A DNA stretch of 32,000 nt from Fibrobacter succinogenes subsp. succinogenes S85 (GCF_000146505.1 NC_017448.1:1470001-1502000), one strand, 5' to 3'; numbered from the stretch's first letter, positions 1 through 21,570 are shown. The notes: a model not told the origin generated them from the sequence alone. Numbers and translations: made by a program.

Positions 1-421
1 CGCACATCAAGGCTCGCCTTGATGCAGGCCGCGCTTTGCTGTACCAGACAGCCAGCTACGTGGACATCTACAAGGGCCTGGAGGACATCGAGCGCACCCG
101 CAAGCTCACCGACGAAGAAAAGGCTGAACTCAAGCTGTATCAGAAGCTCGCCTCTGCATGCACTCCGCTTGCCTGTGAGCCTCAAAGCCCCATGCGTTAA
201 GCTGGGGCGGAGGCGAGAGTGAGGCGCAAGCCGAACGGTCTTATAAGGTCGCCAACTGCGTGATGAGCCAGTTGCTCCTCCGCGATGCCACCAAGTCGCC
301 GGAACTGTTCGACAAGAGCATGAAGGTGTACCTGAACCTCGCCGAAGCCGAAGTCGCGAAGCACTACAACTTCGTGAAGAGCGTGAACGTGGAATCGATG
401 GAGAGTTACAAGCAGGCATAA
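1..421 (+). pseudogene. C-terminal remnant of a long-type acyl-CoA dehydrogenase, apparently disrupted by a frame switch and a missing internal segment
   Basis: Frame 3 reads HIKARLDAGRALLYQTASYVDIYKGLEDIERTRKLTDEEKAELKLYQKLASACTPLA and then hits TAA at 198-200. Frame 2 is open from 179 to the TAA at 419-421 and ends ...VANCVMSQLLLRDATKSPELFDKSMKVYLNLAEAEVAKHYNFVKSVNVESMESYKQA. The first piece resembles the C-terminal alpha-domain helices of ~600-aa ACADs. The >100 aa normally following '..LTP.AK' are absent. Confidence 0.4.
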
Positions 422-476
422 GCCCGCAGGATGTCATCCTGAGCGGAGAGCCGCGGGGCTCGAAGTCGAAGGATCT
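420..476. repeat. GC-rich hairpin-forming intergenic motif that shares short cores with elements at 10757-10990 and 18376-18432
   Basis: The sequence is AAGCCCGCAGGATGTCATCCTGAGCGGAGAGCCGCGGGGCTCGAAGTCGAAGGATC. It contains GGAT-gtc-ATCC and GAGCC-gcgg-GGCTC (448-461) stems. The 10-mer AAGCCCGCAG (420-429) recurs at 10789-10798. Confidence 0.4.
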
Positions 477-487
477 AAAAGAAATTG

Positions 488-520
488 CCCCGGCTCAAAC
501 TGAGTCGGGGTTTCTTGTTT
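488..520. terminator. Rho-independent terminator between convergent genes
   Basis: CCCCGGCTCA-aac-TGAGTCGGGG (488-510) forms a 10-bp stem with one G-U on the plus-strand RNA, followed by TTTCTTGTTT. On the minus strand the same stem has one A/C mismatch and is followed by CAATTTCTTTT. Confidence 0.7.
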
Positions 521-529
521 ATGCAATGT

Positions 530-2281
530 TCACGTCACAAAAATAAAACTCATCAACATTACAGAACATACTGCGAATATTGAAACCGTAATAAATCCCA
601 ATACTTTCCATTTGAGAGAATATTCTTCCTGATACACACCAAGCCCGACATACGGGAGAAAGCTCAACAGGACCGGCAATATATAGCGAAAATCAGCACT
701 ACAGGCGTAGGAATATTTATATCGCAAAAAACCTAAAGCCACAAAGAAAAGAATTCCTTGAATGAATAAAACCCAATGATAAATATTCATTCTGGTTTTC
801 CACCAGCCTCGAATTGCGAAAACAATTAGTCCCAGCAACGACAAACCAATCAACGACGCCAATGTTCGGCCCACAGCCGTATCTACAAGTTTCCATTCGC
901 CAAATAACGAGGATTTAAAAGCGTAATTAAAAAAATATTCTCGTCCTTGTCCATCGACCCATCCATTGGTATAAGGTTCCGTCAAGAACGATTTCATATC
1001 AAAATACAGGAAATTCTTCGCCTCATTTTCAACCTTTAGGCTTGAATGCAAACTATTTATGTTTGCAACCAGTTCACCATTGCTGAAAATCTTAATTACA
1101 ACAAGGCTCACAAAAACAAGAGCCAGTAAAATCCACCCAGCAATTTCTGTTTTGGTCGGCCGATGCAATTGATTTGTTTTTACGAATCCGAAAACAGCAA
1201 ATAGCATTACAAGTCCCAAGGTGACATAGCCCGTAGATTTTGTCCACACCGCAAGAGCCGCACACACAACAGCAGCAACAAGATGCTTTCCGTTTCCGTT
1301 CTTGATATAGTTAAAACCCGCCACCACACATAAAACGTGCAAAGTATAAAAAAGTTGGTCATTTCCGATTCTAGGTGCAACTAAAAGCAACAAGGGCCAT
1401 ACGGTCCACAGAACAGAAGCAATTCCTAAAGGAACACCTGAAACAAATTCCTTCAACAAAAATAGGCCACAGACAAGCAAAATAATTGAAAGAACCAAAC
1501 TGAATGCTTGTGCACCTGAACAAGAATTATAGTCAATCAATCCACTCACCATAAAAGACGGTATTACACTAGCATAATAAACAGGCGGATGGTAACAGCT
1601 CCAGCAATCTTTCGCAGAAGGAATAGAATGATTGTCTATTATATATTGTATATAAGCTAAGTGTCCCTCTACATCCATCGAAAATTGGTTGTAAGGCATC
1701 GCATAGAACATTGCAAAACGCAGGAGAACACCTGCAAGAATACATGCTATCAGAAATGTATTTAGTTTCAGTCGTTTCTCAACCAATATCACGATTATCC
1801 CAACAAGCAGGGCTATCATAAATTTCAGCAGAAACAGCAAAATACTATCGACTTTAGGGAAAACATTTATCCCTGCGATTCCGCCTTTATTCATCAAGAG
1901 AATTTCATAACTGGTTCTATTCCCCACACGATGTGGAGAAGTAACCGAGTCTGGAATCCAAAATCCTTTATTAAAATTACATTTATCCGAATAGCCGCTC
2001 AATGAAAATGCAAAGCCGTTAACCGTCAATGATTCGGCGCAATCATCAGGAATGATGTTTAAATCATAGGGAATATTCAATGGATTAGAAATAGAAAAAC
2101 GAACATTAAACCATTCACCGGCATCCATATTTTGTGAGATGGGTAATGTCGTTTGTTTTTCAGCATTTCCATGCCGCAGAACAACATTTTCCACCCGGAT
2201 TTGACCATAGTGGAGAATGCTGAAGCATATTAAAATGCCAATGGCACAATAGAATTCTATTGACTTAAAAATCTTTTTCAT
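530..2281 (-). CDS. Polytopic membrane protein, GT-C-fold glycosyltransferase-like (PMT_2/ArnT-like), with an extra N-terminal periplasmic beta-rich domain
   Basis: 583 aa. It has an N-terminal anchor, a ~120-aa soluble segment and then ~13 hydrophobic helices. The first large loop carries [13 protein letters not shown] and CYHPPVYY, which resemble the acidic loop motif and hPPL motif of lipid-carrier-dependent GT-C enzymes. The ATG overlaps the upstream stop (ATGA, 2278-2281). Confidence 0.6.
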
Positions 2282-3912
2282 AGTTTTTTACCTTCGTGGT
2301 ATTCCTCTTCGCTGTTCACGCTCCAAAGCGCAGTCTTGTCGCTGCAACCTTCGCGGATGCACTTGACAACTTCCATTGCGGCGAGCATGCTGTGGTCCAT
2401 GTTGTTATACTTGTGCATGCCATTGCGGCCCATTAGGAACAAATTATCAATCGGGTCCACATATTCACGGACTTTGTCGAACTCGCCATAAGTACCGAAG
2501 TAGGCAGGGTAGGCCTTCTTGATGTGGAACACCACGGAATCGCGAACAGACTCGGGCCTTGCCACGTCAATCTTGTCGAGTTCCGCAATCGCGAACTTGA
2601 TGAAGTCCGCATCGGGCATGTTCCACATATCATCGCCTTCGGTGGCAAAGTATTCAAGGCCTATCCACACTTTTTCAGGGTCGGCGACAAGATACGGGCT
2701 CCAGTTGTTGAATATCTGAATACGGCCAAGTTTCACGTCGGATTCCTGCACGTAAATCCAGTTGTCGGCAACGAACTTGAGCTTGCTTTCGGGTGTACCC
2801 GGCTTTGCCGGATTCTTGATTTCAAGTTTGTCCAAAAGGAGGCCCACGGTAATGAAGTCGCGATAGACGAGACCGTCAGAGACGCGGCGCACTTCGGAGG
2901 GCACGGGATTCTTTTCGTTATCCATTGCGGCGACGAGTTCTTTCACCGGCATCGTCGAGAGGAAGTAATCGCACGGGACCGTTTCCGTATAGCGTCCGTA
3001 ATCCACGACGACGCTTTCGACACATTTACCAGTTCCGTCGCGATTCACGCCAACCACGCGGGCGTTCATAACAATCTTGCCGCCCATTTCCTGCACCTTC
3101 TCGGCAACCGTTTCCCAAAGCTGGCCTGGACCGAATTTCGGGTAAAGGAACTGTCCGATAAGGCTAGTTTCCGTGTCCTTCTGGCGGATGTCTGCTCCGT
3201 TGGCGCCGTCAGCAGCACCTTCCGCATTCTTCTTGCCGGCAAAAATCTGCTTGACAGCATGCACCACGGTTTTCGTAATCGAGAGGCCCTTGATGCGCTG
3301 GCCGCCCCAGTCGGGGCTAATCTTGCTGCACGGTACGCCCCACACCTTTTCGGTGTAATCGCGGAAGAACGTGCGGTAGAGTTCCACGCCGAAGCGGTTA
3401 ATCATAAAATCTTCGAGACTATTTTCTTTGCGGGCAGGCATCAACTGCACCTTGATGTAGCTAAGGCCAATTTTCATCATGCGCCAAAGCCCAAGGTTGC
3501 GAATCGTATCGCCGTTCAAGCTGATGGGGTAATTGAACAGCTTGCGCAAAAAGAGAATTCGCGAAAGGCGGCTGCGGCAAAGCATCACGTAGTCCGTCTT
3601 CTCCGGATCAGGACCGCCTTCCGTCAGCGGAACAGTGCGGCCAATCGCGATGTCGTCCTTGCTCGCGACACCCTGGAGCGGTAAAATTCCCTGCCACCAA
3701 TCCATTACCGTATCGCTCTTGCTAAAAAAGCGGTGACCGCCAATATCCATGCGGTTGCCGTTGTAACGCGCCGTACGCGAGATACCGCCAATGACATCTT
3801 CCGCTTCAAAAATCACAGGTTTAACATCTGTTGTACGCAAAAGTTCCAACGCCGCGGTCAAGCCCGCAGGACCAGCACCAGCAATTACAGCAATCTGACT
3901 ATTTTTTTTCAT
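2278..3912 (-). CDS. NAD(P)/FAD-dependent oxidoreductase (amine-oxidase / UDP-galactopyranose-mutase-like fold)
   Basis: 544 aa. The N-terminal dinucleotide fingerprint is [19 protein letters not shown]...[19 protein letters not shown] resembles the GGH.IF motif of UGM-type flavoenzymes. There are ATGA overlaps with both neighbours. Confidence 0.65.
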
Positions 3913-4313
3913 TCATTAAACAAAATCAGCTTGCGAGCGCAAAAATTCCACATCAAAACAACTACAGCAGCTATCATTTTTGAATACAATTCATGCAAAC
4001 TAAAGAAACCAACCATCAACAACATCAAAAGTTCATTAAGTCCCACACCCATTAACCCAACCAAAGCAAACACAGCAAATTCTGCCAATCTGCACTTTTC
4101 TAGTCGACGTTTACTACTACGGAAAACCCAACTTATGCTCAAAGCATAATTCAAGCACAGCCCGGCAACTAGCCCCATAAGATTTGCAAGCAAATATTGC
4201 CATCCAAGACCGTAAAGGCAAAGAGAAAACAAGCCAAAATCAATTACAAAGGCAAATCCGCCCACTAGTATATAACGTGCTAGTTGGGCTAGCACCGTAC
4301 AAAATGCAGACAT
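3909..4313 (-). CDS. GtrA family membrane protein (polyprenyl-phosphate-sugar translocation family)
   Basis: 134 aa with four hydrophobic helices. [18 protein letters not shown]...[24 protein letters not shown] is the typical GtrA-like signature. Confidence 0.75.
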
Positions 4314-4336
4314 TACTCGGAATTTCTGTTAACTAA

Positions 4337-5554
4337 CTACAAAAGCAATGACTCTCTAAACCACTCCCCATAGGGGTTCGCCTTCGGATTAGGGTTGTAG
4401 TTTCCATCTTCACATTTCCAGAATTCGCTTTCATAAGTTTTGTGTGTAACTTGCGGTTCCGTTGACATTATTTCATTTTTGCAATCTTCAATTAGGAAGA
4501 ATACAGAAAAATAATCATCAGTAGAGACACATTCCCCACTAGGCTTCACTTTCGTGAATTCCAGTTCGCCATCGGCAACATGACTCAAAACACTTCCAGT
4601 AAGCAGACCGCCGCCATCCACAAACGTTATAAAGTATTGACAGTTCCCATCTTTTTCTATCAAACGATTTTTCATTATTTTCGCCGTCATCGGGAAACAC
4701 TGCGGTATATCGTTTCCTTCAATTTTAACAAAATGCGATTTTAGCTCCATCGTGTTTACATTCAACGTCAATTCCGTAAAATCTATACAATTCATACTTG
4801 GCAATCCGTTGTATGCAATTACATGTTCGTCAAAAGAAAGCTGTTCAACACTTGAAGCATACTGCAAGACATAATTTTCGAGTGTTTGATCATATTTGAT
4901 TGTTATTGCCGTATCGCTAGGAGATATAGTTGACAAAGGCTCTCGCCCGCCAGCACTAGAAGAGCTTGAACTTTCACCCCCTTTTGACGAAGAAGACGGT
5001 GTTACCCCTCTACCCGTTGAATTTTGGGCATTCCTTGACATTTCAAAACACCGATTTGTAGCGATAGCGCTAAAATAAGTTATCAAGATATTCGCAGAAT
5101 CAGATTCTATTGCCTTTACTCGACAAGCGGCATCAAATGCTCCTTCCTTACAACCTTCACTAAGGCTAAAGAATTCGCTATTAGACTTATTATCGCAATT
5201 AGTCTTGAACTCGGCAAAAGCAGAATCACAGGATTGTTCGAGTCCTTCCGCTTTCAAGGTTGTCACCGCAACAGAACCGGAAATTTGTATGGTCATCGCT
5301 ATGGATGCACTATCCGCGGTACACTCTGCACGAGCGCCCGAACCATCATCCAAAACGGCCAATCTGCCTCCGTCTATTCTGGCATATGCAGCCTCGTTCA
5401 AATCCAAGCCATAATTATACCAATCGTTCACCTGTTTCTCTAAAAGGGCATTCTGGTCTTCGATTGTACCGCCAGATACCTTGTTCGATTCAGAACAAGA
5501 TTCCAGCAGCAAAGTAAGCGAACAAAGCAATAGTAATCCGAAATCAAATTTCAT
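4337..5554 (-). CDS. Cys-rich lipoprotein with a Ser-rich linker
   Basis: The ORF track starts at a TTG (5560). The ATG at 5554 gives MKFDFGLLLLCSLTLLLESC, a signal peptide with a lipobox-like Cys. The central linker is TPSSSSKGGESSSSSSAGG. The N-terminal segment SEGCKEGAFDAACRVKA...NRCFEM loosely matches NEGCGTSLEMSCVAKV...GECETF of the neighbouring lipoprotein. Confidence 0.6.
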   Translation of the reverse strand: MKFDFGLLLLCSLTLLLESCSESNKVSGGTIEDQNALLEKQVNDWYNYGLDLNEAAYARIDGGRLAVLDDGSGARAECTADSASIAMTIQISGSVAVTTLKAEGLEQSCDSAFAEFKTNCDNKSNSEFFSLSEGCKEGAFDAACRVKAIESDSANILITYFSAIATNRCFEMSRNAQNSTGRGVTPSSSSKGGESSSSSSAGGREPLSTISPSDTAITIKYDQTLENYVLQYASSVEQLSFDEHVIAYNGLPSMNCIDFTELTLNVNTMELKSHFVKIEGNDIPQCFPMTAKIMKNRLIEKDGNCQYFITFVDGGGLLTGSVLSHVADGELEFTKVKPSGECVSTDDYFSVFFLIEDCKNEIMSTEPQVTHKTYESEFWKCEDGNYNPNPKANPYGEWFRESLLL

Positions 5555-5566
5555 CGTCAAGAAGCC

Positions 5567-7279
5567 CTAAAAATCATTCCACAAAGTATAACCCAATATC
5601 ACATTGTCAGTTCCAGAATTAGCATAACGGTATATTTCAATTGTCAAATCAGCATTTGAAGTCGTTGTAAAATCTACAACTTCAAACGGATTCTGAGCGC
5701 TAATCGAAGATTCTAGCAACGATCCATTTTGGTAAACTCGCAAATCAATATCCTGCGCTATTGAATTATTCGATATTACATAGTCTCCGCTAGTAAGCCA
5801 AGCTATAGCAATTCGATAATGCGTGTTAGATGCGATGTCATTTTCCGTAAACGTTATTTTATTGTTGTTATCAAAGCAGCAAGAGTTCGATCCACTCCAA
5901 TAACGATACCTATGATTCCACGCTATGCTTGAATATCTAATAATACCCCTTGCCGCTTCTGAATTGTTATCCAAATCATGACTGGAAGCATTTCCTATGG
6001 GTATTTTTTCACTAGACACGATCCAAGCCTTTACAAGTTCGGGATGGCGTTTGAAAAAACCATATTGGCTTAAAAGATCAGCAAAAATGCCCGCTGTGTA
6101 AGGAGTAGACGCACTCGTACCGTTAAAATATCCATTCCACACATCTATATTAATATTTGGGAAATAAAAGTCCGTATAATTTGCCATTTCGGGTTTTTGA
6201 TTACCTATATTCGAATTTTTCCATTTAGAGTAAGAAACATAATTATTGTTAGAAGGATTTACCGCCCCAACAGCAATTGTGTTAAGAGCCAATCCAGGTG
6301 ATCCAACAAAATCCGTAGTATCACTCGATGATATATTTCCCGCAGCATAGAATGAAATCAGTCTATTATTGTAGATATAGTTGTCCACATCTTTATCGTT
6401 TCCCGAATACACACCATTAGACGGAAGATAATGCCAAGAATGCGAACTTATTTCAATAGTCGGATTATGAGCATCCATATTTAGACTACTCAAAAAACCA
6501 GTTCCAAGACCATCATAAGCATATAAAGTCGCCAACGGTGCTGTGGTACTTATGGTTTTCGCAACTGCTGTAGGATGCATTCGAACGCCATTAGAACACG
6601 TATTTAACAGCACATAATACCCTGAATTATAACCTACAGGGTCAGAGCAGCCCTCATCATTGAAGAAGACCCCAATGCCTTGTCCCTTATATCCGTTAGC
6701 ATGAGCATGAGATGTTATCTCAGAATAGCCAAATATTGTGGTATAAAGAGTATAACTGTCAAGAATTGGTTTTCTTACTATATCAATATATACTGGTTCA
6801 GGTCCATTCAACAATGTTTCAATTTCAGATGCCGTGAGAGAAGCTTGATATTGTTGTACCGGGACAAATTTCTCCCGTCTATTTTCAACATTTCTAAAAT
6901 AATCATCTTCAGAAATTCTATTTCCGTCCAACCAATACTTCTTTTCTCCATTTCCATTTACTTCAAACCGACCAGAAATCGGTTGAATCTCTCGGCTCGC
7001 TTGTATTGGAGATATATGTACATCTAAAGTTCTTTGCGGACGCATTATATAATAGGCTTCATTTTGGCCACTATTAGAAGATTTCTTTATTCTACCTAAA
7101 ATATCTCGAGCAGAACTCTTTTTGATTATGGTGTCAGAGACCTGTTTTTGTTCGTTTAAAAAGTCCAAAACATCATTTGACGCTTTACTTTTTAACTCCA
7201 AAGGCGGCAAATATGTCGGTTTTGCAAACAGGGTGGAGGCCAGCAGCAATATTGCAAGAGCAATCGTTTTGGAATTCAT
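5567..7279 (-). CDS. Secreted S8 (subtilisin-like) serine peptidase
   Basis: 570 aa with signal peptide MNSKTIALAILLLASTLFA. All four subtilase motifs are in order: GIGVFFNDEG (Asp), MHPTAVA (His), FYAAGN (oxyanion Asn) and FNGTSASTPYTAG (Ser). An AGGAGG Shine-Dalgarno (SD) sequence lies 7 nt upstream of the ATG. Confidence 0.8.
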   Translation of the reverse strand: MNSKTIALAILLLASTLFAKPTYLPPLELKSKASNDVLDFLNEQKQVSDTIIKKSSARDILGRIKKSSNSGQNEAYYIMRPQRTLDVHISPIQASREIQPISGRFEVNGNGEKKYWLDGNRISEDDYFRNVENRREKFVPVQQYQASLTASEIETLLNGPEPVYIDIVRKPILDSYTLYTTIFGYSEITSHAHANGYKGQGIGVFFNDEGCSDPVGYNSGYYVLLNTCSNGVRMHPTAVAKTISTTAPLATLYAYDGLGTGFLSSLNMDAHNPTIEISSHSWHYLPSNGVYSGNDKDVDNYIYNNRLISFYAAGNISSSDTTDFVGSPGLALNTIAVGAVNPSNNNYVSYSKWKNSNIGNQKPEMANYTDFYFPNINIDVWNGYFNGTSASTPYTAGIFADLLSQYGFFKRHPELVKAWIVSSEKIPIGNASSHDLDNNSEAARGIIRYSSIAWNHRYRYWSGSNSCCFDNNNKITFTENDIASNTHYRIAIAWLTSGDYVISNNSIAQDIDLRVYQNGSLLESSISAQNPFEVVDFTTTSNADLTIEIYRYANSGTDNVILGYTLWNDF

Positions 7280-7291
7280 ATTTCATCCTCC

Positions 7292-8755
7292 TTATTCGTT
7301 CCAAGTTGTATCGCAAGCCATTCCGTTTTCCGTATCGCCTTGGCATTGTACAGTAGGCAGGGGTTCCGCTTCGGGGAGATTCGCAATAAACGTTTCGCAT
7401 TCGCCTTTGAATGTATTGGCGATAGCCCTGAGTTCAGTCTGACTGGAGACCTTGGCTACACAGGACATTTCGAGGCTAGTGCCACAACCTTCATTGTAAA
7501 TCCTATAAACGCCGCCTTTCTCGTTGCATTCGGCAACATAAGCTATGCTGTCGGCCACACAAAGTTCCGTCTTTCCAGCAAAGGTTTTATAGTGCAAATC
7601 CTGTATGTAAAGCGACCCTTCGTTTTCCTTGAGGAGAATGGTTGCGTCATCGTATTGATCAAGAATAGTGCTATAGCCAGAAACCTTTTCCTTTTTAGAC
7701 TTGTAAAAAGATATTCCATCTTCTTGATTGTACAGATTTACCCAACAGCTTCCGTTGGACTTTATCTCGTTGTACACAACTTCTTTTTCGGTCGTAAAAG
7801 TAAACAAGACCGGAGAGAGTGCAAGCGTCGGCTCGTCGGTAGGCACGACCTCATCCAGAATGATATCGTCAGAAACAACAGCCTTACTGCGGCTTCCAAA
7901 GGAATCCAGCATACTGTTCATGAACGCAATGTCAGCATCGGACAAGGTTTTCGCGACATTATTGGCAGAAACATTTTCGTCATTTTTCTGCGTTGTGTCG
8001 CAGACCATTCCATTTTCCGTATCGCCTTGGCAATGCACGGTAGGCAATTCTTCCGCTTCGGGGAGATTCGCAATAAACGTTTCGCATTCGCCTTTGAATG
8101 TATTGGCGATAGCCCTGAGTTCAGTCTGACTGGAGACCTTGGCTACACAGGACATTTCGAGGCTAGTGCCACAACCTTCATTATAAATCCTGTAAATGCC
8201 GCCTTTCTCGCTGCATTCGGCAACATAAGCTATGCTGTCGGATACGCAAAGTTCCGTCTTTCCAGCAAAGGTTTTATAGTGCAAATCCTGCACATAAAGC
8301 GATCCTTCGTTTTCCTTGAGGAGAATGGTCGCATCATCGTATTGATCGAGAATGGTGTTATAGCCAGGAACCTTTTCCTTTTTAGACTTGTAAAAGGAAA
8401 TACCTTTTTCTTCGTCATACAGATTTACCCAACAGCTTCCGTTGGACTTTATCTCGTTGTACACAACTTCTTTTTCGGTCGTAAAAGTAAACAAGACCGG
8501 AGAGAGTGTGAGAGTCGGTTCATCTGTCGGAGTCACATCGTTAGCACCATCAGAAGCGACAGCTTGGCTGTTACTCCCAAAGGAATCCAGCATGCCGTTC
8601 ATGAACGCAATATCCGCATCGGATAAAGACTTTTCTGCAGTAACAGGCGCTTCTGTTGAAGGTTCTGTTCCAACGGTGGATACTGCTCCCTTATCTTCGG
8701 AGCAGGCTGCTAAAGCGATAATAGCAGCAGCGGAAATAATGATTTTTTTATTCAT
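7292..8755 (-). CDS. Lipoprotein built from two near-identical ~229-aa Cys-containing modules
   Basis: The preferred start is ATG 8755 (MNKKIIISAAAIIALAAC, lipobox), with AGGAG 7 nt upstream. The longer ORF-track start (8788) lies inside the upstream gene. The two modules run from LSDADIAFMN... to ...CQGDTENGM.CDTT. Confidence 0.7.
   Translation of the reverse strand: MNKKIIISAAAIIALAACSEDKGAVSTVGTEPSTEAPVTAEKSLSDADIAFMNGMLDSFGSNSQAVASDGANDVTPTDEPTLTLSPVLFTFTTEKEVVYNEIKSNGSCWVNLYDEEKGISFYKSKKEKVPGYNTILDQYDDATILLKENEGSLYVQDLHYKTFAGKTELCVSDSIAYVAECSEKGGIYRIYNEGCGTSLEMSCVAKVSSQTELRAIANTFKGECETFIANLPEAEELPTVHCQGDTENGMVCDTTQKNDENVSANNVAKTLSDADIAFMNSMLDSFGSRSKAVVSDDIILDEVVPTDEPTLALSPVLFTFTTEKEVVYNEIKSNGSCWVNLYNQEDGISFYKSKKEKVSGYSTILDQYDDATILLKENEGSLYIQDLHYKTFAGKTELCVADSIAYVAECNEKGGVYRIYNEGCGTSLEMSCVAKVSSQTELRAIANTFKGECETFIANLPEAEPLPTVQCQGDTENGMACDTTWNE
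7295..8647 (-). repeat. Intragenic tandem direct duplication, unit about 687 bp
   Basis: For example CCATTCCGTTTTCCGTATCGCCTTGGCA at ~7319 and CCATTCCATTTTCCGTATCGCCTTGGCA at ~8006 are offset by 687 bp. The protein units are roughly 90 percent identical by eye. Confidence 0.9.
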
Positions 8756-9608
8756 GGTTATGCTCCTTATTTTTAAATGAGGTTTCATTGTTCTGAATTT
8801 TTTCTGTGAGCGGGAACATCTGCATATTCAATCGGTACACTCGGTTTCCGCCCTTTTTGGCTGTCGCAATGGATATGATTCTTTTACGGCAAGCGTCCAG
8901 TTCCTTCAAAATTTCGGCATAGTCTTCATCGTCTATTCCCATGGTGATGCCGGTAAAATTCCGTTCATCTATGGGGTACTTTTCAACAGCCTCTCTTGCG
9001 AAATCAGCCATTTCCTTATGCATTTCACGAACGAGCACCGGCATGGCGGCAACGGACATCTGGAGAGACCTATCCACTTGCTCGTACACATCATCCGCAG
9101 TCTTCTTCAAGAACTTCGCTCGGGTCAAGAATGCCAACGCATCGCGGACCTCCTCGGCCGAGAAAGCCCCTCCACACGCCTTGGCCACTTTCAGAGGCTT
9201 CGCTCCGGGCATCATGGGAGCAAGTTCGCGCAGCACAGGATATTTCCACGATTCGTAAAAAGAGACTGATTCCCCTTCTAAAACACGGACCTTGTGAGCA
9301 CTGGCAATTTCCTTCATTTCTGTATAGGCAGCCTTCTTGTCTGCATCACTCTTTGCCTGTCCAAATTTCACAAGTTGTCTAAAATATTCTCTTTCAGCAC
9401 CCACAAGATCCATCGCGTCAGCGGCATGTTCAATTCCATTCTTCGACAAGCCGCTCTTGCCTTCACACACAATCTTCATATAATTGGGTGAAGTAAACCC
9501 TCCCTTCTTTGTAAAATCACGCCAGGAGAAAGCGGATGTTCGCTTTTTCCACTGGTAGTAATCGTTCATAAAGGAACGGTAGTCTTCATATTCAATTACG
9601 GATCTCAT
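8748..9608 (-). CDS. TIGR02147 / DUF4423 family protein (putative HTH-type regulator)
   Basis: 286 aa. The N-terminus YEDYRSFMNDYYQWKKRTSAFSWRDFTKKGGFTSPNYMKIVCEGKSGLS...EREYFRQLVKF matches my recollection of the family pattern (Y.DYR.FL.DYY..KK....FS.R.FA...G..S..YLK.VI.GKRNLS...E..YF..LV.F). Its stop overlaps the next gene's start by 8 nt. Confidence 0.7.
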   Translation of the reverse strand: MRSVIEYEDYRSFMNDYYQWKKRTSAFSWRDFTKKGGFTSPNYMKIVCEGKSGLSKNGIEHAADAMDLVGAEREYFRQLVKFGQAKSDADKKAAYTEMKEIASAHKVRVLEGESVSFYESWKYPVLRELAPMMPGAKPLKVAKACGGAFSAEEVRDALAFLTRAKFLKKTADDVYEQVDRSLQMSVAAMPVLVREMHKEMADFAREAVEKYPIDERNFTGITMGIDDEDYAEILKELDACRKRIISIATAKKGGNRVYRLNMQMFPLTEKIQNNETSFKNKEHNHE

Positions 9609-9653
9609 TATACCTTAAATATATTTTCCAATCCGCTTGCCACGATCAGTTTT

Positions 9654-9690
9654 TCTATACAAAATTTGCGAATTTTTATCAATTTGTATA
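9654..9690 (-). promoter_or_regulatory. Candidate sigma-70-type promoter overlapped by an inverted repeat (possible operator) for the 9608-530 operon
   Basis: On the minus strand, TTGATA (9682-9677), a 17-nt spacer and TATAGA (9659-9654). The imperfect inverted repeat TATACAAAATT (9656-9666) / AATTTGTATA (9681-9690) spans the spacer. There are also direct repeats AAAATTTGCG (9661-9670) and TAATTTTGCG (9689-9698). Confidence 0.35.
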
Positions 9691-9774
9691 ATTTTGCGTA
9701 TAATAAAAGAATTTTAAAGTTTTACTATACGGTAAAATGCATATTTTAGCATTTTTAGCAAGCGAAAAATCCCC

Positions 9775-9807
9775 TAAAAAAAGAACCGCAGCTACAACAC
9801 TGCGGTT
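9775..9807 (-). terminator. Rho-independent terminator of the 217-aa gene
   Basis: On the minus strand, AACCGCAG-tgttgtag-CTGCGGTT followed by CTTTTTTTAGGGG. The stem is 8 bp and perfect. Confidence 0.7.
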
Positions 9808-9862
9808 TTCATTGCATAAAACGGAACCGATTCTACAAAATCGGAACAAGTCAGAAAAAACT

Positions 9863-10516
9863 CTACGAATTTTTATACAAGTCGCTCAAATCTAGAGCCA
9901 TAAACGTAGCGCCGTCGTCATATACAGGACGAACATGCCGTTTTATATTCTCAGTTTCAGAAGAGTTCAGTTCAAATTCAGAAAATCCATAATTGTCTTG
10001 ATAGTACTTTACCAACCTTTTATCAATGGCGTGTATAATCAAGTAATTTACAGCCACATATTCGTTTATGGCTTTTACGATATCAAGGATAAAACCATAG
10101 AACATGGCTGCCGTAATTTCTTCCTTGCAATTTGTGCTATTCGAGAAAGCACCATTGCGAGCAAAGTTCACTAGTTCTATAGCCGAATCAGTATATTCTA
10201 CCGAACTTTCGCGATCAGTTTCTTCATCAAATTGAATATCCAAATCGCTTTCTTCTGGAAGTTGCTCGAAACGAGGCAGGATTGCGGTCTTCAGCGTAAA
10301 ATAGCCGCACATTTCATGCAGACGGTCAAAAACTATATAGGTCGTTGACACGTGGTCCCGAGTTTCTATAATTGCATCGCGCGTTAAATACTTTTCTAGA
10401 CCCTTGCCCGCTTCGCATGTAGCCTCAAATGTACTAAGCAAGCGTTTGCACTCCTCCGAGTCACAAACCTTCTCACAGCTAAACGAGCCATCAGGAAGAA
10501 CGTAGGGAAAATTCAT
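9863..10516 (-). CDS. Acidic hypothetical protein with GNAT-toxin-like (TacT/KacT-type) motif order
   Basis: 217 aa. The motifs occur in this order: FSC...LEKYLTRDA...TTYIVFD...CGYFTLKTAIL...LPEE...AIELVNFARN...VAVNYLIIHAIDKRLVKYYQDNYGFSEF...TFMALDL. This parallels F.CG..LD.FL..A...TYV....GYYTLSA.SI...LP...LGRLAVD...V.A.D..A..FY...GF...LFLPM of GNAT toxins. A canonical Q/RxxGxG/A motif is not evident, and an acidic insertion (ESDLDIQFDEETDRESSVEY) is present. Confidence 0.5.
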   Translation of the reverse strand: MNFPYVLPDGSFSCEKVCDSEECKRLLSTFEATCEAGKGLEKYLTRDAIIETRDHVSTTYIVFDRLHEMCGYFTLKTAILPRFEQLPEESDLDIQFDEETDRESSVEYTDSAIELVNFARNGAFSNSTNCKEEITAAMFYGFILDIVKAINEYVAVNYLIIHAIDKRLVKYYQDNYGFSEFELNSSETENIKRHVRPVYDDGATFMALDLSDLYKNS

Positions 10517-10650
10517 TTGGCTTGTGTTGCGTGTTTACGCTTAAAATCAAGATAACGAGCAACATTAACGGGAGCAATTTTTCCCGTCTGTTTTGCGGCA
10601 TGCAACTTTCGCAATGCCATAACAAGCTGCTGCTTTTTTGCGTTCACCAT
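10513..10650 (-). CDS. Small basic protein (45 aa), translationally coupled to the 217-aa gene and absent from the ORF track
   Basis: The product is MVNAKKQQLVMALRKLHAAKQTGKIAPVNVARYLDFKRKHATQAK (8 K, 3 R, 1 D). An AGAGG SD lies 7 nt upstream of the ATG at 10650. The TGA stop overlaps the downstream ATG (ATGA at 10513-10516). A strand-helix-helix (RHH-like) arrangement is possible. Confidence 0.5.
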   Translation of the reverse strand: MVNAKKQQLVMALRKLHAAKQTGKIAPVNVARYLDFKRKHATQAK

Positions 10651-10667
10651 AATAAGCCTCTATAAGT

Positions 10668-10696
10668 AATATAACTAATTATCATCTTCAAGTCAA
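10668..10696 (-). promoter_or_regulatory. Canonical sigma-70-type promoter of the 45-aa/217-aa cassette
   Basis: On the minus strand, TTGACT (10696-10691), exactly 17 nt, then TATATT (10673-10668). The -10 box ends 17 nt upstream of the ATG at 10650. Confidence 0.55.
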
Positions 10697-10756
10697 CAAT
10701 CCAATATGATTTTTCCAGAGGTTTTCCATAACATTTCGCTTTTTCAGACATTTTTG

Positions 10757-10990
10757 CAGTAAGCCAGGCGTTGCGGGCTGGCGTTTGAAGCCCGCAGTGG
10801 GGGTAGCGTAAGACCTGGCCGGGGCGGGCTTTGGTCAGTATTCCCGAAGGGAATGACTATATGGGCGGGGCCGGGGCTGGAGCGAGGGGGATACTTCCCC
10901 CTTCATACTAAGCCTTACACTTGGCGTCTACGACGCCAGTTTGCATCGCCTCGGTCATGCCCAAGCGAACTTGGGCGCGACACTCGGCTC
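10757..10990. other. GC-rich cluster of perfect short hairpins (candidate structured RNA or REP-like element array)
   Basis: Stems: GCGGGCT/AGCCCGC (10774-10796), ATTCCC-gaa-GGGAAT (10841-10855), GGGGGA-tact-TCCCCC (10887-10902), TGGCGTC-tac-GACGCCA (10922-10938) and GCCCAAG-cgaa-CTTGGGC (10959-10976; the loop is UUCG on the minus strand). The plus strand carries many G3-G5 runs. The region lies directly after the carB stop, with no T-tract terminator. Confidence 0.4.
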
Positions 10991-10991
10991 G

Positions 10992-13900
10992 CTACACTTC
11001 TTCAATGCTTGCGTGGTACTCTTGCAGGCTCTTCACGGCACCATGTCCGTTCCTTGCAGCGGCGATTCCCTTCACGGTGTTGTAGGCACCGGCGAGCGTG
11101 GTGATGTAAGGCACCTTGTACTTGATGGCGGCCTTACGGATAGCGCTTTCGTCCTTGATGGCGTCGCGCTTTGCCCACGGCGTGTTGATGATGAGGTTCA
11201 CCTGCTTGTTCAGGATGATATCGAGAACGTTCGGGCGGCCTTCAGCAATCTTGTTCACCACTTCGCACTTGACACCGGCGGCTTCGTAGAACTTGGCGGT
11301 ACCTTCGGTAGCGTAAATCTTGAAGCCGAGCTTCTGGAATTCCTTACCGATTTCAATCGCCTGTTCGGAGAGGTTCACCTTGTCAGAAAGGCTGATGAGC
11401 ACAGCGCCTTCGGACGGGAGGAAGGAACCTGCAGCTTCCTGGCTCTTGTAGTAAGCGAGGGCGTAGTCGTCGGAAAGGCCGAGGACTTCACCAGTGGAGC
11501 GCATTTCGGGGCCGAGAACCGGGTCCACCTTCGGGAACTTGTCGAACGGGAACACAGCTTCCTTGGCACCGTGGTGGTTGAACTTCTTGTCCTTGAGCTT
11601 GAGGTCTTCGAGCTTGGCACCGAGCATCAAGCGGGTCGCGAGGCGAGCCATCTGCGTGTTACAGACCTTGGAGACCAGAGGCACCGTGCGGGAGGCACGC
11701 GGGTTGGCTTCGAGGACGAACACCTTGCCGTCTTCGATGGCGTACTGCATATTCATGAGGCCGCAAACGTGGAGGGCTTCAGCAATCTTCCTCGTGTAAT
11801 CCTTGATGGTTGCCAAGTTTTCCTTGGTGATGGTCACCGGCGGGATGATGCAGGCGGAGTCACCGGAGTGGACACCGGCAAGTTCGACGTGTTCCATCAC
11901 GGACGGGATGTAAACGTGTTCGCCGTCAGAGAGGGCGTCGGCTTCGCATTCGAGAGCGTTGTGGAGGAAGCGGTCGATGAGGAGCGGACGGTCCGGGGTC
12001 ACGCCGACAGCCTTGGCAACGTATTCGCGGAGCATGGCTTCGTCGTAGATGACTTCCATGCCACGGCCACCAAGCACGAAACTCGGGCGGATCATCACCG
12101 GGTAGCCACCGATCTGCTTGACGCAAGCGAGGGCTTCGTCGATGTTCGTAGCCATGCCACTTTCCGGCATCGGGATGCCGAGCTGGTCCATCATCTTGCG
12201 GAACAGGTCGCGGTCTTCGGCAATGTCGATGGAGTCGATGCTCGTACCGAGAATCTTGACACCTTCGTCGCTCAAAGCGCGGGCGATGTTCAGCGGAGTC
12301 TGGCCACCGAACTGCACAATCACGCCAGCCGGCTTTTCCTTGTGGTAAATCTGGAGAACGTCTTCGAGGCTGACCGGTTCGAAGTACAGCTTGTCGGAAG
12401 TATCGTAGTCGGTAGAAACCGTTTCAGGGTTGCAGTTCACCATGATGGTTTCGTAACCCATTTCGCGGAGAGCCATGGCAGCATGGCAGCAGCAGTAGTC
12501 GAATTCGATACCCTGGCCGATTCTGTTCGGGCCACCGCCGAGAATCATGATCTTCTTCGGGTTGTTGGAAGCGGTAGATTCGTCCTTGCAGTTGTAGGTG
12601 CTGTAGTAGTAGTACTGGTCCTTCACGCCGCTCACCGGCACTGCGCACCAGCCTTCGACCACGCCGAGTTCGGTACGCTTCTTGCGCACGTCCTTTTCGC
12701 GGATGCCAAGAATCTTTGCGATGTACTTGTCGCTGAAGCCGTCCTTCTTGGCCTTGATGAGGAGTTCGTCAGCAGGCAGGCGACCCGGAGTCTTGAGCAT
12801 TTCTTCTTCGAGTTCCACGAGTTCGCGCATCTGCTGCACGAAGTAAGCCTTCTCGTAGGTGGCAGCGAAGATTTCTTCGTCGGTAGCGCCCTTACGGATA
12901 GCTTCGTACATCTGGAAGTGACGTTCGGAAGAAGCGGTCTTCATCATTTCGAGGAGCTCTTCCTTGCTCTTCTTGTTGAAGTCCTTCGCAAAGCCGAGGC
13001 CGGAGCGACCGTTTTCGAGGCCGCGGATAGCCTTCTGGAGGGTTTCCTTGTAGGTCTTGCCGATAGCCATGACTTCGCCCACGGCCTTCATCTGGGTGCC
13101 GAGGCAGTCATCGACGCCGCGGAACTTTTCGAATGCCCAGCGTGCGAACTTGAGCACCACGTAGTCACCGCTCGGGGTGTACTTTTCGAGGCTTCCGTCG
13201 CGCCAGTACGGAATCTGGTCGAGGGTGAGGCCTGCGGCGAGCTTTGCTGAAATGAGGGCGATCGGGAAGCCGGTAGCCTTGGAAGCAAGTGCAGAAGAGC
13301 GGCTGGTACGCGGGTTGATTTCGATAATCACCACGCGGCCGGTCTTCGGGTCGTGAGCGAACTGGACGTTGGTACCGCCAATCACACCGATAGATTCCAC
13401 AATCTTGAAGGCCTTTTCCTTCAGTTCTTCTTCGAGCTTCTTGTCGATGGTGAGGAATGGGGCGGCACAGAAGGAGTCGCCGGTATGCACGCCCACCGGG
13501 TCGATGTTTTCGATGAAGCAGATGGCGATCATCTGGTTCTTGGAATCGCGCACGACTTCGACTTCGAGTTCTTCCCAACCGAGAATGGATTCTTCGATGA
13601 GGCACTGGTGCGTCATGGAGAGTTCAAGACCGTTAGAGCAAATGGTGCGGAGTTCTTCCACGTTGTAGCAGAAACCGCCGCCTGCACCGCCCATGGTGTA
13701 TGCCGGGCGAACCACCACCGGGTAGCCGATTTCGGCCACGATCTTTTCGGCTTCTTCCACAGAGTGGCAAATGCCGGAGCGCGGGGTGTCGATGCCGAGC
13801 TTCTGCATGGTTTCCTTGAAGATTTCACGGTCTTCGCCGCGTTCGATAGCGTCGAGGTTCACACCGATGACCTTCACGCCGTACTTGTCCAGCACGCCAG

Positions 13901-19438: not shown

Positions 19439-21403
19439 TTATTTGCACTTAGAGTTAGCAAGGTTCAGCAGGTTCTTGTACGCTGCCATGCACCTTCTGT
19501 GATCCTTCGTACCTTCCGTGTAAGAGTAGCATTCGCCAAGCTTGTTATTAGCCATATCACGTTCCTTGCACGGCTTTTTCGGAGCCGGTTCAGCAGCAGA
19601 CTGAGCATTCTTCTGCTGAGGCTTTGCAGCCTGTGCCGGAGCGTCATAGGAATACACAAACACTTCGATGCGGTTATTCTTCATGCGGTTATCCGGAGTC
19701 GTATTCGGAACGAGAGGTTCGTCACCGCCCTTGCCCGTTGCAATGATATCCTGACCAGAAAGGCCTGCCATCACCAAGTAGCTCTTCACTTCTTCAGCGC
19801 GCTTCAAGGCAAGCACACGGCTTCTTTCCGGGCGATCAAGGTTATCCGTATGGGAGACAATCTCAATCGTCTTGCCGTTATAGTTTCTCAAGTGGGCTGC
19901 AAGCCTGTTCAAGCCGTCAGAAGATTCACGCGTAAACTTGGACTGACCAACGCCGAACGTCACGCCCTGCAAAATGAACTTTTCAAGGACAGTCTTGTCT
20001 GCGGCATTCTTAGAGGAATTTCCCTGAGCGGCCGGCTTTCCACCAGCCTGGGACGTCGTCACCTGTGGCTTAGGAGTTCCATAAGACGGCCCATTTTTCA
20101 CACAGCGAAGCTTGTTCGTATAGGCATCACCATGCTTGAAATACGGCGTACCCTTCTCGCGGATGGCATTGTACTTCCAATCCACGTAAGTCACTTCGTT
20201 GCCGTTCTTCGAAGAAGTCCAGTAACCGCGCTTGAAGTCAAAATTCATGCTGCACGGATTCACCTTCGCATCGCGATTGTTCCTCATGCGCTTGTCATTG
20301 GCATGGATTTCAAACTCGGTCGCCTTCGAGAACAGCTGCTCGTATTCATACTGTTCCGGAACATGCCAGCCACGCGGGCAAGCACGATTAAGGTTACGGG
20401 CTTCCATTTCATCCAGACGGTCAAGGATCACATCTTCAGCCATCCAGGTCTGGTCACCAATCTTAAGCGTCCTATACGTCTTTCCGGCATTGTCCATCAC
20501 GCCACCGAGACGTTCCTTGCAAGCCGCTTCCCAGTTCTGAATGCAGCGCACTGAATAGCCATTGGCCTTGCGCCCCTGGAAAGCAAACGTTTCGAGATTC
20601 TGGCCTCTAAAGCTCATGGCATCGGCACGGTCACTGCCCTTTTCATCGCCAAGCCAGAAGAAAGCTCGGCTGCCGAGGTCAATATAGCGTTCGCCATCAA
20701 CATAGTAACCACCGTCAAGCACTCTGAAGCTGTTCAGATTGAAGTCCTGGTAGTTGAGGTCATCACCCATCGGCAAGCTCCAGCCATCCGGGCAAGCCTT
20801 CTTGGCGGCATTCCACGTATAAAGTCTACCGTAGCTTTCGCAATTCTGAGTATTGTTATCGTAGCAGTAGCTTTCCGGCAAACGGAACTTCAAGTTTTCA
20901 GCCATCCAGACTCGGCCACCAATCTTCACCGTCGTATAGCGTTCACCGTCGCGGTTATCAATGAGGAGGTTCTTCGATTCATCATAAGTTGAAGTATTCT
21001 GGTATTTATTTGCAGCATACGGATTCGGCGGAGGCGGCTGGGTCGGGCGCGTAGCCTGGGCAGCACGTTCCTCTTCAGAAATACTGCAGTCATATTCCTG
21101 CGGAAGCTTACCAAAATAGTAGTTGTACTTGTCCGGGGTAATCCAGATTTCACTGCTACCAACCGAGGAACGCATAAAAGAACGCGGATAATTGGCGCAT
21201 CTGAAAAGCACATTGGCGCAACGATCGTCCTTCTTTTCCGTTCTAAACGTATCCTCCATATCCGGGCAGCGCCAGTAGCACGAATTACCGAACATATCGT
21301 CAAAGCCGCAAGCAACCACAGTCTTGTCGCCAGACGGAGCGGCAAAAACCGATTCCGCAGCAAGGAACGTAGTAGCTACAGCAAGAGCGTACTTTTTATT
21401 CAT
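19439..21403 (-). CDS. Secreted protein with two Fibrobacter major paralogous (TIGR02145-like) domains and a C-terminal OmpA_C peptidoglycan-binding domain
   Basis: The preferred start is ATG 21403 (MNKKYALAVATTFLAAESVFA, with GGAG 6 nt upstream). Domain 1 is YTTVKIGGRVWMAENL...YGRLYTWNAAKKACPDGWSLP. Domain 2 is YRTLKIGDQTWMAEDV...ACPRGWHVPE...RGYWTSS. The OmpA_C part is GVTFGVGQSKF...IEIVSHTD...ALKRAEEVKSYL...NRIEV. A Cys-rich tail follows. Confidence 0.8.
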   Translation of the reverse strand: MNKKYALAVATTFLAAESVFAAPSGDKTVVACGFDDMFGNSCYWRCPDMEDTFRTEKKDDRCANVLFRCANYPRSFMRSSVGSSEIWITPDKYNYYFGKLPQEYDCSISEEERAAQATRPTQPPPPNPYAANKYQNTSTYDESKNLLIDNRDGERYTTVKIGGRVWMAENLKFRLPESYCYDNNTQNCESYGRLYTWNAAKKACPDGWSLPMGDDLNYQDFNLNSFRVLDGGYYVDGERYIDLGSRAFFWLGDEKGSDRADAMSFRGQNLETFAFQGRKANGYSVRCIQNWEAACKERLGGVMDNAGKTYRTLKIGDQTWMAEDVILDRLDEMEARNLNRACPRGWHVPEQYEYEQLFSKATEFEIHANDKRMRNNRDAKVNPCSMNFDFKRGYWTSSKNGNEVTYVDWKYNAIREKGTPYFKHGDAYTNKLRCVKNGPSYGTPKPQVTTSQAGGKPAAQGNSSKNAADKTVLEKFILQGVTFGVGQSKFTRESSDGLNRLAAHLRNYNGKTIEIVSHTDNLDRPERSRVLALKRAEEVKSYLVMAGLSGQDIIATGKGGDEPLVPNTTPDNRMKNNRIEVFVYSYDAPAQAAKPQQKNAQSAAEPAPKKPCKERDMANNKLGECYSYTEGTKDHRRCMAAYKNLLNLANSKCK

Positions 21404-21570
21404 AAAGACTCCGTATTCCAACACAATTAAGCGTGTTTGTATTATAAAGATTTGACCAAAAATACATTTTTCACAATCCCTCTTTTTAGATGATACAATT
21501 TGTTTCAATAGTTTCGCATCCACACGAAAATTTTTATTTACATACAATTCAAGCCACCAACCTCCCCCCT

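Follow-up and report, generated by a model that had tools for sequence, protein, structure and literature searches.

In the 32,000-nucleotide (nt) stretch of the Fibrobacter succinogenes subsp. succinogenes S85 chromosome analysed here (CP001792.1, about 1.02-1.04 Mb; hereafter the window), seven closely packed genes (Fisuc_0826-0832) occupy the minus strand from 530 to 9608. Read in the direction of transcription, they encode a TIGR02147/DUF4423 protein (Fisuc_0832, FSU_1276; 8748-9608, 286 amino acids (aa)), a lipoprotein that we call lipoA (Fisuc_0831; 7292-8755, 487 aa counted from the ATG behind AAGGAG), a secreted subtilase of family S8 (Fisuc_0830; 5567-7279, 570 aa), a two-domain lipoprotein, lipoB (Fisuc_0829; 4337-5554, 405 aa), a small membrane protein of the GtrA family (3909-4313, 134 aa), a flavoenzyme of family NF005546 (Fisuc_0827; 2278-3912, 544 aa) and a membrane glycosyltransferase (GT) of the GT-C fold (Fisuc_0826; 530-2281, 583 aa). 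To judge from their sequence, the seven genes are a real operon, and we propose that this operon is a mosaic of three modules with separate evolutionary distributions. For the complete form of the proposal, with the mechanism set out below, we regard the chances as evenly balanced.

The open reading frames (ORFs) and their junctions are as a first-pass annotation of this DNA had given them, with one overlap of 8 nt, gaps of 12, 12 and 23 nt and two ATGA overlaps, and AAGGAG-type ribosome-binding sites precede the starts of lipoA (8755) and of the S8 gene (7279). Both flanks carry hairpins. A terminator scan and RNA folding place a likely intrinsic terminator at 487-511, common to the 3' end of the operon and a convergent remnant ORF; folded as minus-strand RNA it reaches -16.1 kcal/mol (z -2.4), and the T-rich minus-strand tail AAUUUCUUUUAG follows it, in keeping with the terminator first predicted there. 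On the other side, a hairpin and T-run (9784-9807, minus strand; nine pairs, tail CTTTTTTTAG, also recovered by folding) ends the upstream gene Fisuc_0833 (9863-10516) and, as a predicted terminator, insulates the operon against read-through from it. The terminator-like matches inside the operon, where the first-pass annotation had seen no terminator, are weak stems of 5-9 pairs within coding sequence; shuffled sequence would be expected to give 10.1 +/- 3.4 matches, a figure that the 16 obtained in all do not clearly exceed. An Rfam scan of positions 1-11000 detected no riboswitch or other known RNA.

The promoter-like region that had been noted at 9654-9690 falls within a conserved block at 9651-9703 (minus strand), a predicted promoter/operator. 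In an alignment of nine upstream regions, from loci whose regulator genes are 72-96% identical, this block is kept and the flanks have diverged. It consists of a tandem TTATAC-N6-TTATACA (9685-9703) followed by TTGATA-17-TATAGA (9654-9682), the -10-like hexamer of which overlaps an inverted GTATA. The core, the 19-nt pattern TTATACNNNANATTATACA at 9685-9703, occurs a single time in the window, with zero occurrences expected. Each of 30 related loci likewise has exactly one copy, in every case on the coding strand and upstream of the first operon gene; where the first gene encodes famA, a module described below, the pattern precedes famA. Because it is single and lies ahead of the first gene in all 30 loci, we infer one promoter/operator per operon, an arrangement compatible with autoregulation. 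Together with the tight packing and the flanking hairpins, this sustains the earlier description of one transcription unit under a single conserved upstream control region. The product of the first gene matches TIGR02147, the paralogous family Fsuc_second, at 292.7 bits (cut-off 50) over positions 1-271 of 272, and DUF4423 at 99.7 bits; it is a predicted cytoplasmic protein, a putative transcription regulator and a putative autoregulator, and the conserved repeat-bearing element upstream of its gene counts as indirect support for a regulatory role. Our comparison covered about 130 related loci (numbers prefixed L), and some of them (L012, L017, L022, L024 and L107) hold more distant TIGR02147 paralogues, with different, likewise palindromic AT-rich upstream elements such as GATAACAAATGTTATC, TATAATACACATTGTATTATA and GATACGCGCCGTATC. 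Each paralogue may bind an operator of its own, of the ATAC/GTAT type.

LipoA has a signal peptide and a canonical lipobox (ALAAC), followed by two tandem copies of a module, roughly 175 aa long and bearing eight conserved Cys, to which we have given the name famA. The two units (unit 1, 7946-8632; unit 2, 7295-7945; both minus strand), each with its eight conserved Cys, form a direct repeat and constitute a recent 687-nt tandem duplication, with 94% identity across the reported 300-nt repeat; a tandem-repeat scan by TRF missed it because the period exceeds 500. Most lipoA relatives are single-unit proteins of 250-265 aa, and metagenomic variants of the same locus have 258, 378 or 487 aa. From this variation in copy number of the 687-nt unit, lipoA appears to expand and contract through unequal recombination. 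The number of famA units also differs between near-identical strains (L002-L006, L075-L081). No Pfam family matches lipoA, and the AlphaFold2 model of the famA module, built on an alignment of 14 sequences at 58-97% identity, was unusable (pLDDT 35).

LipoB, whose lipobox (LLESC) is less canonical, begins with a divergent famA-type Cys module recognised by profile-profile comparison (N-domain, 4985-5494), continues through a Ser-rich linker, SSSSKGGESSSSSSAGG (4946-4996, residues 187-203), which is the poly-Ser tract already pointed out in the second lipoprotein, and ends in a C-domain that we call famB and define by its own profile (4340-4948; all three on the minus strand). BLASTP finds no similarity between lipoA and lipoB (E 4.5), and the shared module is visible to profile methods alone: an hhalign comparison of famA with the lipoB N-domain gives a probability of 95.2% (E 2.7e-8, 122 columns, five Cys aligned), and the famA profile aligns onto the N-domain with all Cys in register. 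A Cys module common to both lipoproteins and present in three copies, two in lipoA and one in lipoB, had been proposed from the start, and these results bear the proposal out. The lipoB family is small, with 50 representatives among 1.8 billion proteins, and in P0334, P0363 and P0382 famA and famB occur joined in different orders.

The subtilase matches Peptidase_S8 (PF00082) at 56.4 bits (cut-off 21.8), as do all 29 relatives, and PDB subtilisins are found down to E 5e-7. It has a type I signal peptide, the catalytic residues D208, H235 and S389 in the order Asp-His-Ser, and the oxyanion residue N315. H235, N315 and S389 are invariant among the 29 relatives, and the acid position, D208 here, is Glu in most of them, an unusual but conservative variation. 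The N- and C-terminal regions are conserved and have no Pfam match; an I9-like propeptide at the end of the N-terminal region was considered and found unsupported by profile search. To survey the family, GTDB species genomes were scanned with the S8 alignment, which yielded 57 loci; the ORFs called in each were searched with the seven products and iterated profiles. The S8 gene lies at most 16 nt from a small famA- or famB-type Cys-containing lipoprotein gene on the same strand in 21 loci, which make up about half of the Fibrobacterota S8 loci and include termite-gut lineages; the famA profile locates its module beside S8 genes in 13 loci, the famB profile detects small lipoproteins directly downstream of S8 genes, and a TIGR02147 gene adjoins the S8-lipoprotein pair in about ten loci. 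The subfamily also occurs as tandem arrays of two to four paralogues in L016, L018, L033 and L039, without famA or famB neighbours.

This recurrent pairing invites the explanation that the subtilase and the small lipoproteins are a protease and its cognate outer-membrane lipoprotein inhibitor or anchor, in the manner of the KLIKK peptidases and potempins, and that the glycosylation genes are unrelated passengers. The adjacency in 21 Fibrobacterota loci is what such pairs would predict, and in three loci of Candidatus Thiovulum (Campylobacterota; L048, L049 and L052) distant S8 relatives are directly followed by unclassified small Cys-rich lipoproteins (cluster c8). In Tannerella forsythia, likewise of the Fibrobacteres-Chlorobi-Bacteroidetes (FCB) group, genes for secreted peptidases, one of them a subtilase, adjoin genes for small outer-membrane lipoproteins, the potempins, of which PotC inhibits a subtilase (PMC9890683). 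Yet famA, famB and lipoB are common without any S8 (about 40 loci), which is unexpected for dedicated inhibitors; the modules are disulfide-rich and larger, 175-200 aa against potempin beta-barrels of 98-132 aa; they bear no sequence similarity or other homology to potempins, and often lack a protease neighbour altogether. That S8 usually has a famA or famB neighbour while the lipoproteins mostly occur without S8 favours a protease that acts on, or is docked to, the lipoproteins over a dedicated-inhibitor model, and the linkage of the lipoproteins to the GT-C gene would go unexplained. We therefore consider the inhibitor or anchor explanation improbable.

The subtilase is an accessory, dispensable gene and a presence/absence polymorphism: some operons that in all other respects almost match that of S85 lack it or keep no more than a 34-codon remnant. 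In L080 the order is regulator-lipoA-lipoB-trio (GtrA, flavoenzyme, GT-C) without S8, the GT-C and GtrA being 99% and the flavoenzyme 95% identical to those of S85; S8 is also absent from L075-L077, and in L078, L079 and L081 only its last 34 codons are left, at 100% identity. The exact S85 S8 protein is nonetheless common in metagenomes. These S8-less and S8-remnant operons (L075-L081) contradict an obligatory role of the subtilase in the maturation of the lipoproteins, the part that the first-pass annotation had suggested for it. They also weigh on the wider explanation to which that role belongs, namely that the seven genes form one indivisible system: the trio would glycosylate both lipoproteins, the subtilase would mature them and the TIGR02147 protein would control the whole. 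The tight packing and single control region would suit such a system, as would the position of S8 between two lipoproteins with a common module, its frequent place beside famA or famB lipoproteins elsewhere, and the link of the GT-C to lipoB. However, the full seven-gene set occurs in S85-like strains only; a GT-C is missing from most S8-lipoprotein loci, as S8 is from most lipoB loci. In the S8 survey, genes for GtrA, the flavoenzyme or a GT-C lie nearby in just four architectures: S85 itself, L007 (famA-S8-trio, without lipoB), L013 (regulator-famA-GT-C, with a trio divergent from S8) and L008 (S8-GT-C); L066 and L132 lack S8. An indivisible system is thus decidedly improbable. The self-contained syntenic unit first proposed does not hold, for the trio also stands alone and regulator-lipoB mostly occurs without GT-C; of the expected co-occurrence of S8, Cys-module lipoprotein and GtrA/flavoenzyme/GT-C genes, the link of lipoB to one GT-C clade and the S8-famA/famB pairs do recur, whereas the full set shows no synteny.

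The other two couplings emerge from the lipoB side. A metagenome scan with the lipoB alignment returned 57 rumen loci, 43 of which carry the two-domain lipoB; a TIGR02147 gene stands upstream of it in 36 of the 43, the other seven including contigs that end at lipoB and three cases missed by the ORF picker, and regulator and lipoB form a near-universal pair. The GT-C of the window belongs to an orthologue clade (67-72% identity) whose genes come straight after lipoB in 11 or more loci, in differing chromosomal neighbourhoods, and are found there with GtrA and the flavoenzyme (L066, L080, L088, L089, L091 and L132), without them (L078, L079, L082 and L135) or with a remnant of GtrA (L134). L088-L091 and L132 have the order famA-regulator-lipoB-trio, L085 has another GT-C paralogue behind lipoB, and L083 and L092 break off partway through the flavoenzyme gene that follows GtrA, before a GT-C could be seen. 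Taken from the side of the transferase, four of five looked-up GT-Cs at 63-72% identity have regulator-lipoB immediately upstream (L066, L132, L134 and L135). The GT-C family is Fibrobacter-wide, its other paralogues being 34-47% identical to that of the window, and trio cassettes with GT-Cs of 37-47% identity stand alone among housekeeping genes in L064, L068 and L070. In L070/L071 (5249-6961) and L068/L069 (3682-5388), a secreted protein of about 570 aa without Pfam match and a 186-aa beta-barrel-like protein lie upstream of GtrA; the pair abuts GtrA in the former, a divergent cellulase gene lies between in the latter, and these proteins may belong with a different GT-C paralogue as a further set of partners.

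In the loci compared, three gene couplings are thus conserved, namely regulator with lipoB, lipoB with one GT-C clade, and S8 with famA or famB. Could they nevertheless be accidents of a variable, low-GC island that gathers surface genes by recombination, the packing recording no more than the history of insertion? The GC content is 38-42% over the GT-C, GtrA, lipoB and S8 genes, compared with 55-58% in the flanking carB; IS3 transposases occur downstream in variants, and the modules are extensively shuffled. Against this, the same partners come together again and again, in at least five architectures and at chromosomal sites unrelated to one another, and a single conserved control element heads each version. 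An absence of any functional connection is, in our view, highly improbable.

GtrA, a small protein in the range of three to four transmembrane helices, matches PF04138 at 83.3 bits (cut-off 26.1) over residues 13-132 and is a putative flippase for a polyprenyl-phosphate-linked sugar; its gene always precedes the flavoenzyme gene in the trio cassettes. The flavoenzyme matches NF005546 (PRK07208) at 880.5 bits (cut-off 418), and its best PDB match is the Trypanosoma cruzi UDP-galactopyranose mutase (UGM) 4dsg (E 4.7e-16), with the motifs aligned. It retains the UGM motifs GxGxxG, DIGGH, FFR.YTEKVW, GRIQ.F..WSP, AYP.Y and GRNG.H.YNN.DH, whose positions are invariant in nine homologues from three phyla (Fibrobacter, Gloeothece, Methylomagnum, Novosphingobium), except that R184 is Lys in three plasmid homologues. 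It is thus a distant relative of UGM and a putative pyranose/furanose mutase, for which any substrate would be a guess. In several phyla members of NF005546, a family that NCBI labels "hypothetical", accompany GtrA. The PADLOC defence-system models gave a weak flavin-domain match for the flavoenzyme (PDLC01086, E 1e-5) and none for the other products.

Between cassettes the flavoenzymes are 61-91% identical, whereas the GT-Cs of the same cassettes are 34-72% identical, and the GC content of the flavoenzyme gene is about 50%; this identity contrast and the mosaic GC suggest that the donor gene has undergone gene conversion or has recently been exchanged. Other cassettes with flavoenzymes 89-91% identical to that of the window have GT-Cs that reach only 36-47% identity to the window GT-C. 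A Novosphingobium plasmid with the arrangement flavoenzyme-GtrA-large membrane protein (605 aa) suggests that the partnership of the first two reaches beyond Fibrobacter. Profile comparison of the Fibrobacter GT-C with this 605-aa protein and with a Methylomagnum GT39 gave no significant match.

For the 583-aa product of the last gene, Pfam gives no match, with no PMT, PMT_2 or MIR domain, and sequence and profile searches of the PDB gave none either; the separate Pfam search of its beta-sandwich region was equally negative. PMT_2 is, however, matched weakly by 27 of its 35 homologues (best 2e-7), again without MIR. The AlphaFold2 model (pLDDT 86.6, pTM 0.84) matches GT-C enzymes only in Foldseek, with probability 1.0 for EmbB, STT3/AglB/PglB, ArnT, Pmt4, AftA/B/D and ALG12 at TM-scores of about 0.4, and on the model and the PMT_2 matches of its homologues the protein is predicted, with confidence, to have the GT-C fold. 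An N-terminal transmembrane helix is followed by a periplasmic beta-sandwich (residues 27-144) and the transmembrane core. Invariant residues are PDDC in the beta-sandwich, D203 and H207 (DVEGH), CWSC at 226-229, and R304, N307 and D308; in the model D203 stands at the start of a helix that follows a transmembrane helix, which makes it a candidate for the conserved acidic residue of the first extracytoplasmic loop. The motif CWSCYHPP (residues 226-233, about 1583-1606) is invariant in all 35 homologues and lies in a periplasmic loop beside the putative catalytic loop. Its CxxC could be a disulfide or metal site, and we know of no CWSC motif in characterised GT-C families. The NCBI name, GT39 protein O-mannosyltransferase, does not fit the protein, which has neither a PMT match nor MIR domains and to which Pmt4 is one of many equally distant structural matches. 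The first-pass family assignments hold product by product, with the matches given above to TIGR02147, DUF4423, Peptidase_S8, GtrA and NF005546 and with the GT-C recognised through its model and homologues.

We suggest that these observations are best accounted for by the mosaic of three modules. The first would be a core pair, the TIGR02147 putative autoregulator and lipoB, expressed from the conserved TTATAC-repeat promoter/operator. The second would be a gtr-like cassette for periplasmic glycosylation, made up of the GtrA flippase, the UGM-like flavoenzyme and the GT-C transferase, in which flavoenzyme and GtrA may be conserved, interchangeable donor-supply genes and the GT-C the variable, acceptor-specific gene, the clade of the window being dedicated to the regulator-lipoB unit. 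The third would be an accessory pair, the secreted S8 subtilase and the famA lipoprotein lipoA, gained and lost between strains. Under this proposal the flavoenzyme would turn a sugar donor into its furanose form, a polyprenyl-phosphate sugar synthase encoded elsewhere would place the sugar on a lipid carrier, GtrA would flip the lipid-linked sugar over the membrane, and the GT-C would transfer it outside the cytoplasm, the best candidate acceptor being the Ser-rich linker of the co-encoded lipoprotein or lipoproteins. Where present, S8 may act on or be held by lipoproteins of the famA/famB type, and it would not be required for the rest. We consider glycosylation of the lipoprotein by the GT-C a plausible inference, because one GT-C clade stays directly after lipoB despite loss of GtrA and flavoenzyme, loss of S8 and relocation, and because other GT-C paralogues adjoin famA (L013) and S8 (L008).

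A number of results pull the other way. The linker is equally Ser-rich in lipoB relatives with and without an adjoining GT-C; it is general to the family and was rejected as a marker of GT-C-linked lipoproteins. About 70% of regulator-lipoB loci continue with unrelated genes, most regulator-lipoB pairs lack a GT-C, and in L133 (GT-C clade, 64% identity) the trio occurs without regulator-lipoB. The flavoenzyme falls below the curated UGM thresholds (TIGR00031, 29.6 bits against 303.75) and has no match to PF03275 (GLF). No GT2 polyprenyl-phosphate sugar synthase is found among the seven products or the scanned ORFs of the 32-kb window, which leaves the donor pathway incomplete as encoded, and none lies beside the trio in L064-L071 or L132-L135. 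For the TIGR02147 protein no helix-turn-helix model matched and no PDB relative was found, and its N-terminus has no Pfam match. A search of S85 envelope proteome supplements found none of the seven products listed.

Some of these points, with others, feed the further possibility that the trio decorates an envelope glycan (lipopolysaccharide, capsule or glycolipid), in which case the lipoproteins would not be acceptors, but surface proteins that simply share its regulation or else assist the GT-C as partners in the periplasm. Cassettes alone among housekeeping genes (L064, L068, L070), and that of L133, would be expected under it; the GT-C beta-sandwich has structural neighbours among carbohydrate-binding modules in Foldseek and would suit a glycan acceptor; the homologous flavoenzymes of other phyla lie within glycosyltransferase clusters of polysaccharide type; and conserved donor genes with a variable GT-C are the pattern of O-antigen-modifying gtr clusters (PMC11194591). 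What it leaves unexplained is why the GT-C clade has kept its place immediately behind lipoB even where GtrA and flavoenzyme or S8 were lost or the genes moved elsewhere in the genome, and why other GT-C paralogues stand beside famA (L013) and S8 (L008). We hold an envelope-glycan role to be rather unlikely, if still one to be reckoned with.

Several known systems bear comparison with the operon. In Pseudomonas aeruginosa, the group IV pilin is arabinosylated by TfpW, a dedicated GT-C encoded beside its pilin substrate PilA, and in mycobacteria the gene order Rv3789-DprE1-DprE2-AftA, that is, GtrA-like flippase, flavoenzyme and GT-C, delivers a lipid-linked furanose. The Fibrobacter operon resembles the former in having the GT-C gene beside that of a presumed protein substrate, and the latter in its gene order; it differs from both in that a Cys-rich lipoprotein takes the place of pilin or arabinogalactan as candidate acceptor, and from the mycobacterial system in that the flavoenzyme has the UGM/amine-oxidase fold, not the vanillyl-alcohol oxidase (VAO) fold of DprE1, and that no phosphoribosyl-pyrophosphate-dependent synthase is present. 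UGM enzymes (Glf; eukaryotic-type 4dsg and 3uka) share with the flavoenzyme the flavin adenine dinucleotide (FAD) fold, the GGH histidine loop, both phosphate-binding Arg positions and the C-terminal GR.G..Y..N.DH, all of which align. Unlike them, it has an identity too low for the curated models, one Arg replaced by Lys in distant homologues and an extra insert at about residues 75-110 and 225-245, and it is encoded with a flippase and a GT-C, not with cytoplasmic galactofuranosyltransferases. Among transferases, PMT (GT39) and ArnT (GT83) have the fold in common with the window GT-C, and D203 may correspond to the acidic residue with which their first outer loop begins; ArnT is the most compact structural match (TM 0.41/0.44, root-mean-square deviation 6.8). 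MIR domains and PMT/PMT_2 matches are missing from the window protein, which has a unique N-terminal beta-sandwich and carries the invariant CWSC motif.

The cassette also resembles systems of the GtrABC type (phage-derived O-antigen glucosylation; CsbB/GtcA/YfhO of Gram-positives), where gtrA and gtrB are conserved and the GT-C is variable (PMC11194591). As there, a small GtrA flippase and a polytopic GT-C are encoded together, donor supply is conserved while the GT-C diverges, and several cassettes occur among related genomes. In contrast to them, the Fibrobacter cassette and window hold no GtrB-like GT2, a UGM-like flavoenzyme stands in its place, and one GT-C clade is tied to a regulator-lipoprotein pair, not to O-antigen genes. 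The novelty is best described as these two departures, the flavoenzyme in place of GtrB and the coupling of the cassette to a lineage-specific regulator-lipoprotein unit, within a three-component periplasmic glycosylation theme. A bolder version would see here a dedicated lipoprotein O-glycosylation of a new type, with furanose made by the UGM-like flavoenzyme, brought onto a lipid carrier, flipped by GtrA and placed by a specialised GT-C on the Ser-rich linker under a TIGR02147 autoregulator; more broadly, GtrA, NF005546 and a polytopic transferase would be an uncharacterised cross-phylum route of periplasmic furanosylation without GtrB in the cassette. This we offer tentatively, as possible but doubtful. 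Literature searches on TIGR02147, the locus tags and the combination of GtrA, mutase and GT-C returned nothing relevant, and one on DUF4423 a single mention in an unrelated Bdellovibrio proteome paper.

Around the operon, the remnant ORF that converges with it (1-421, plus strand) has its last 75 or so codons intact (…SYKVANCVMSQLLLRDATKSPELFDKSMKVYLNLAEAEVAKHYNFVKSVNVESMESYKQA, stop) and an upstream frame broken by stops, and public annotation calls no gene there. On this side, beyond the window, lies a 3318-aa Tc-toxin-like gene (VRP1/TcA_TcB_BD), and IS3 transposases occupy the side in metagenomic variants. Outside the operon finding, 19439-21547 encodes an OmpA-family protein with a Fib_succ_major domain, probably FSU_1288, which is listed as 3.8-fold less abundant on cellulose (PMC6851124), and a histidine kinase (28211-29470) and a sigma-70 family factor (29605-30456), neither part of the operon, are found elsewhere in the window.

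F. succinogenes is a principal degrader of cellulose in the rumen whose workings centre on the cell surface, yet its largest paralogous families, TIGR02147 and many lipoproteins among them, are without assigned function. The present analysis supplies units in which function can be tested: a regulator-lipoprotein pair with its cis-element, a GT-C clade with a candidate acceptor, and NF005546 with the active-site motifs of UGM. The natural S8-plus and S8-minus variants are ready controls for the role of the protease. If the flavoenzyme does feed a lipid-linked furanose pathway, it would represent a new donor-supply branch of the three-component glycosylation paradigm.

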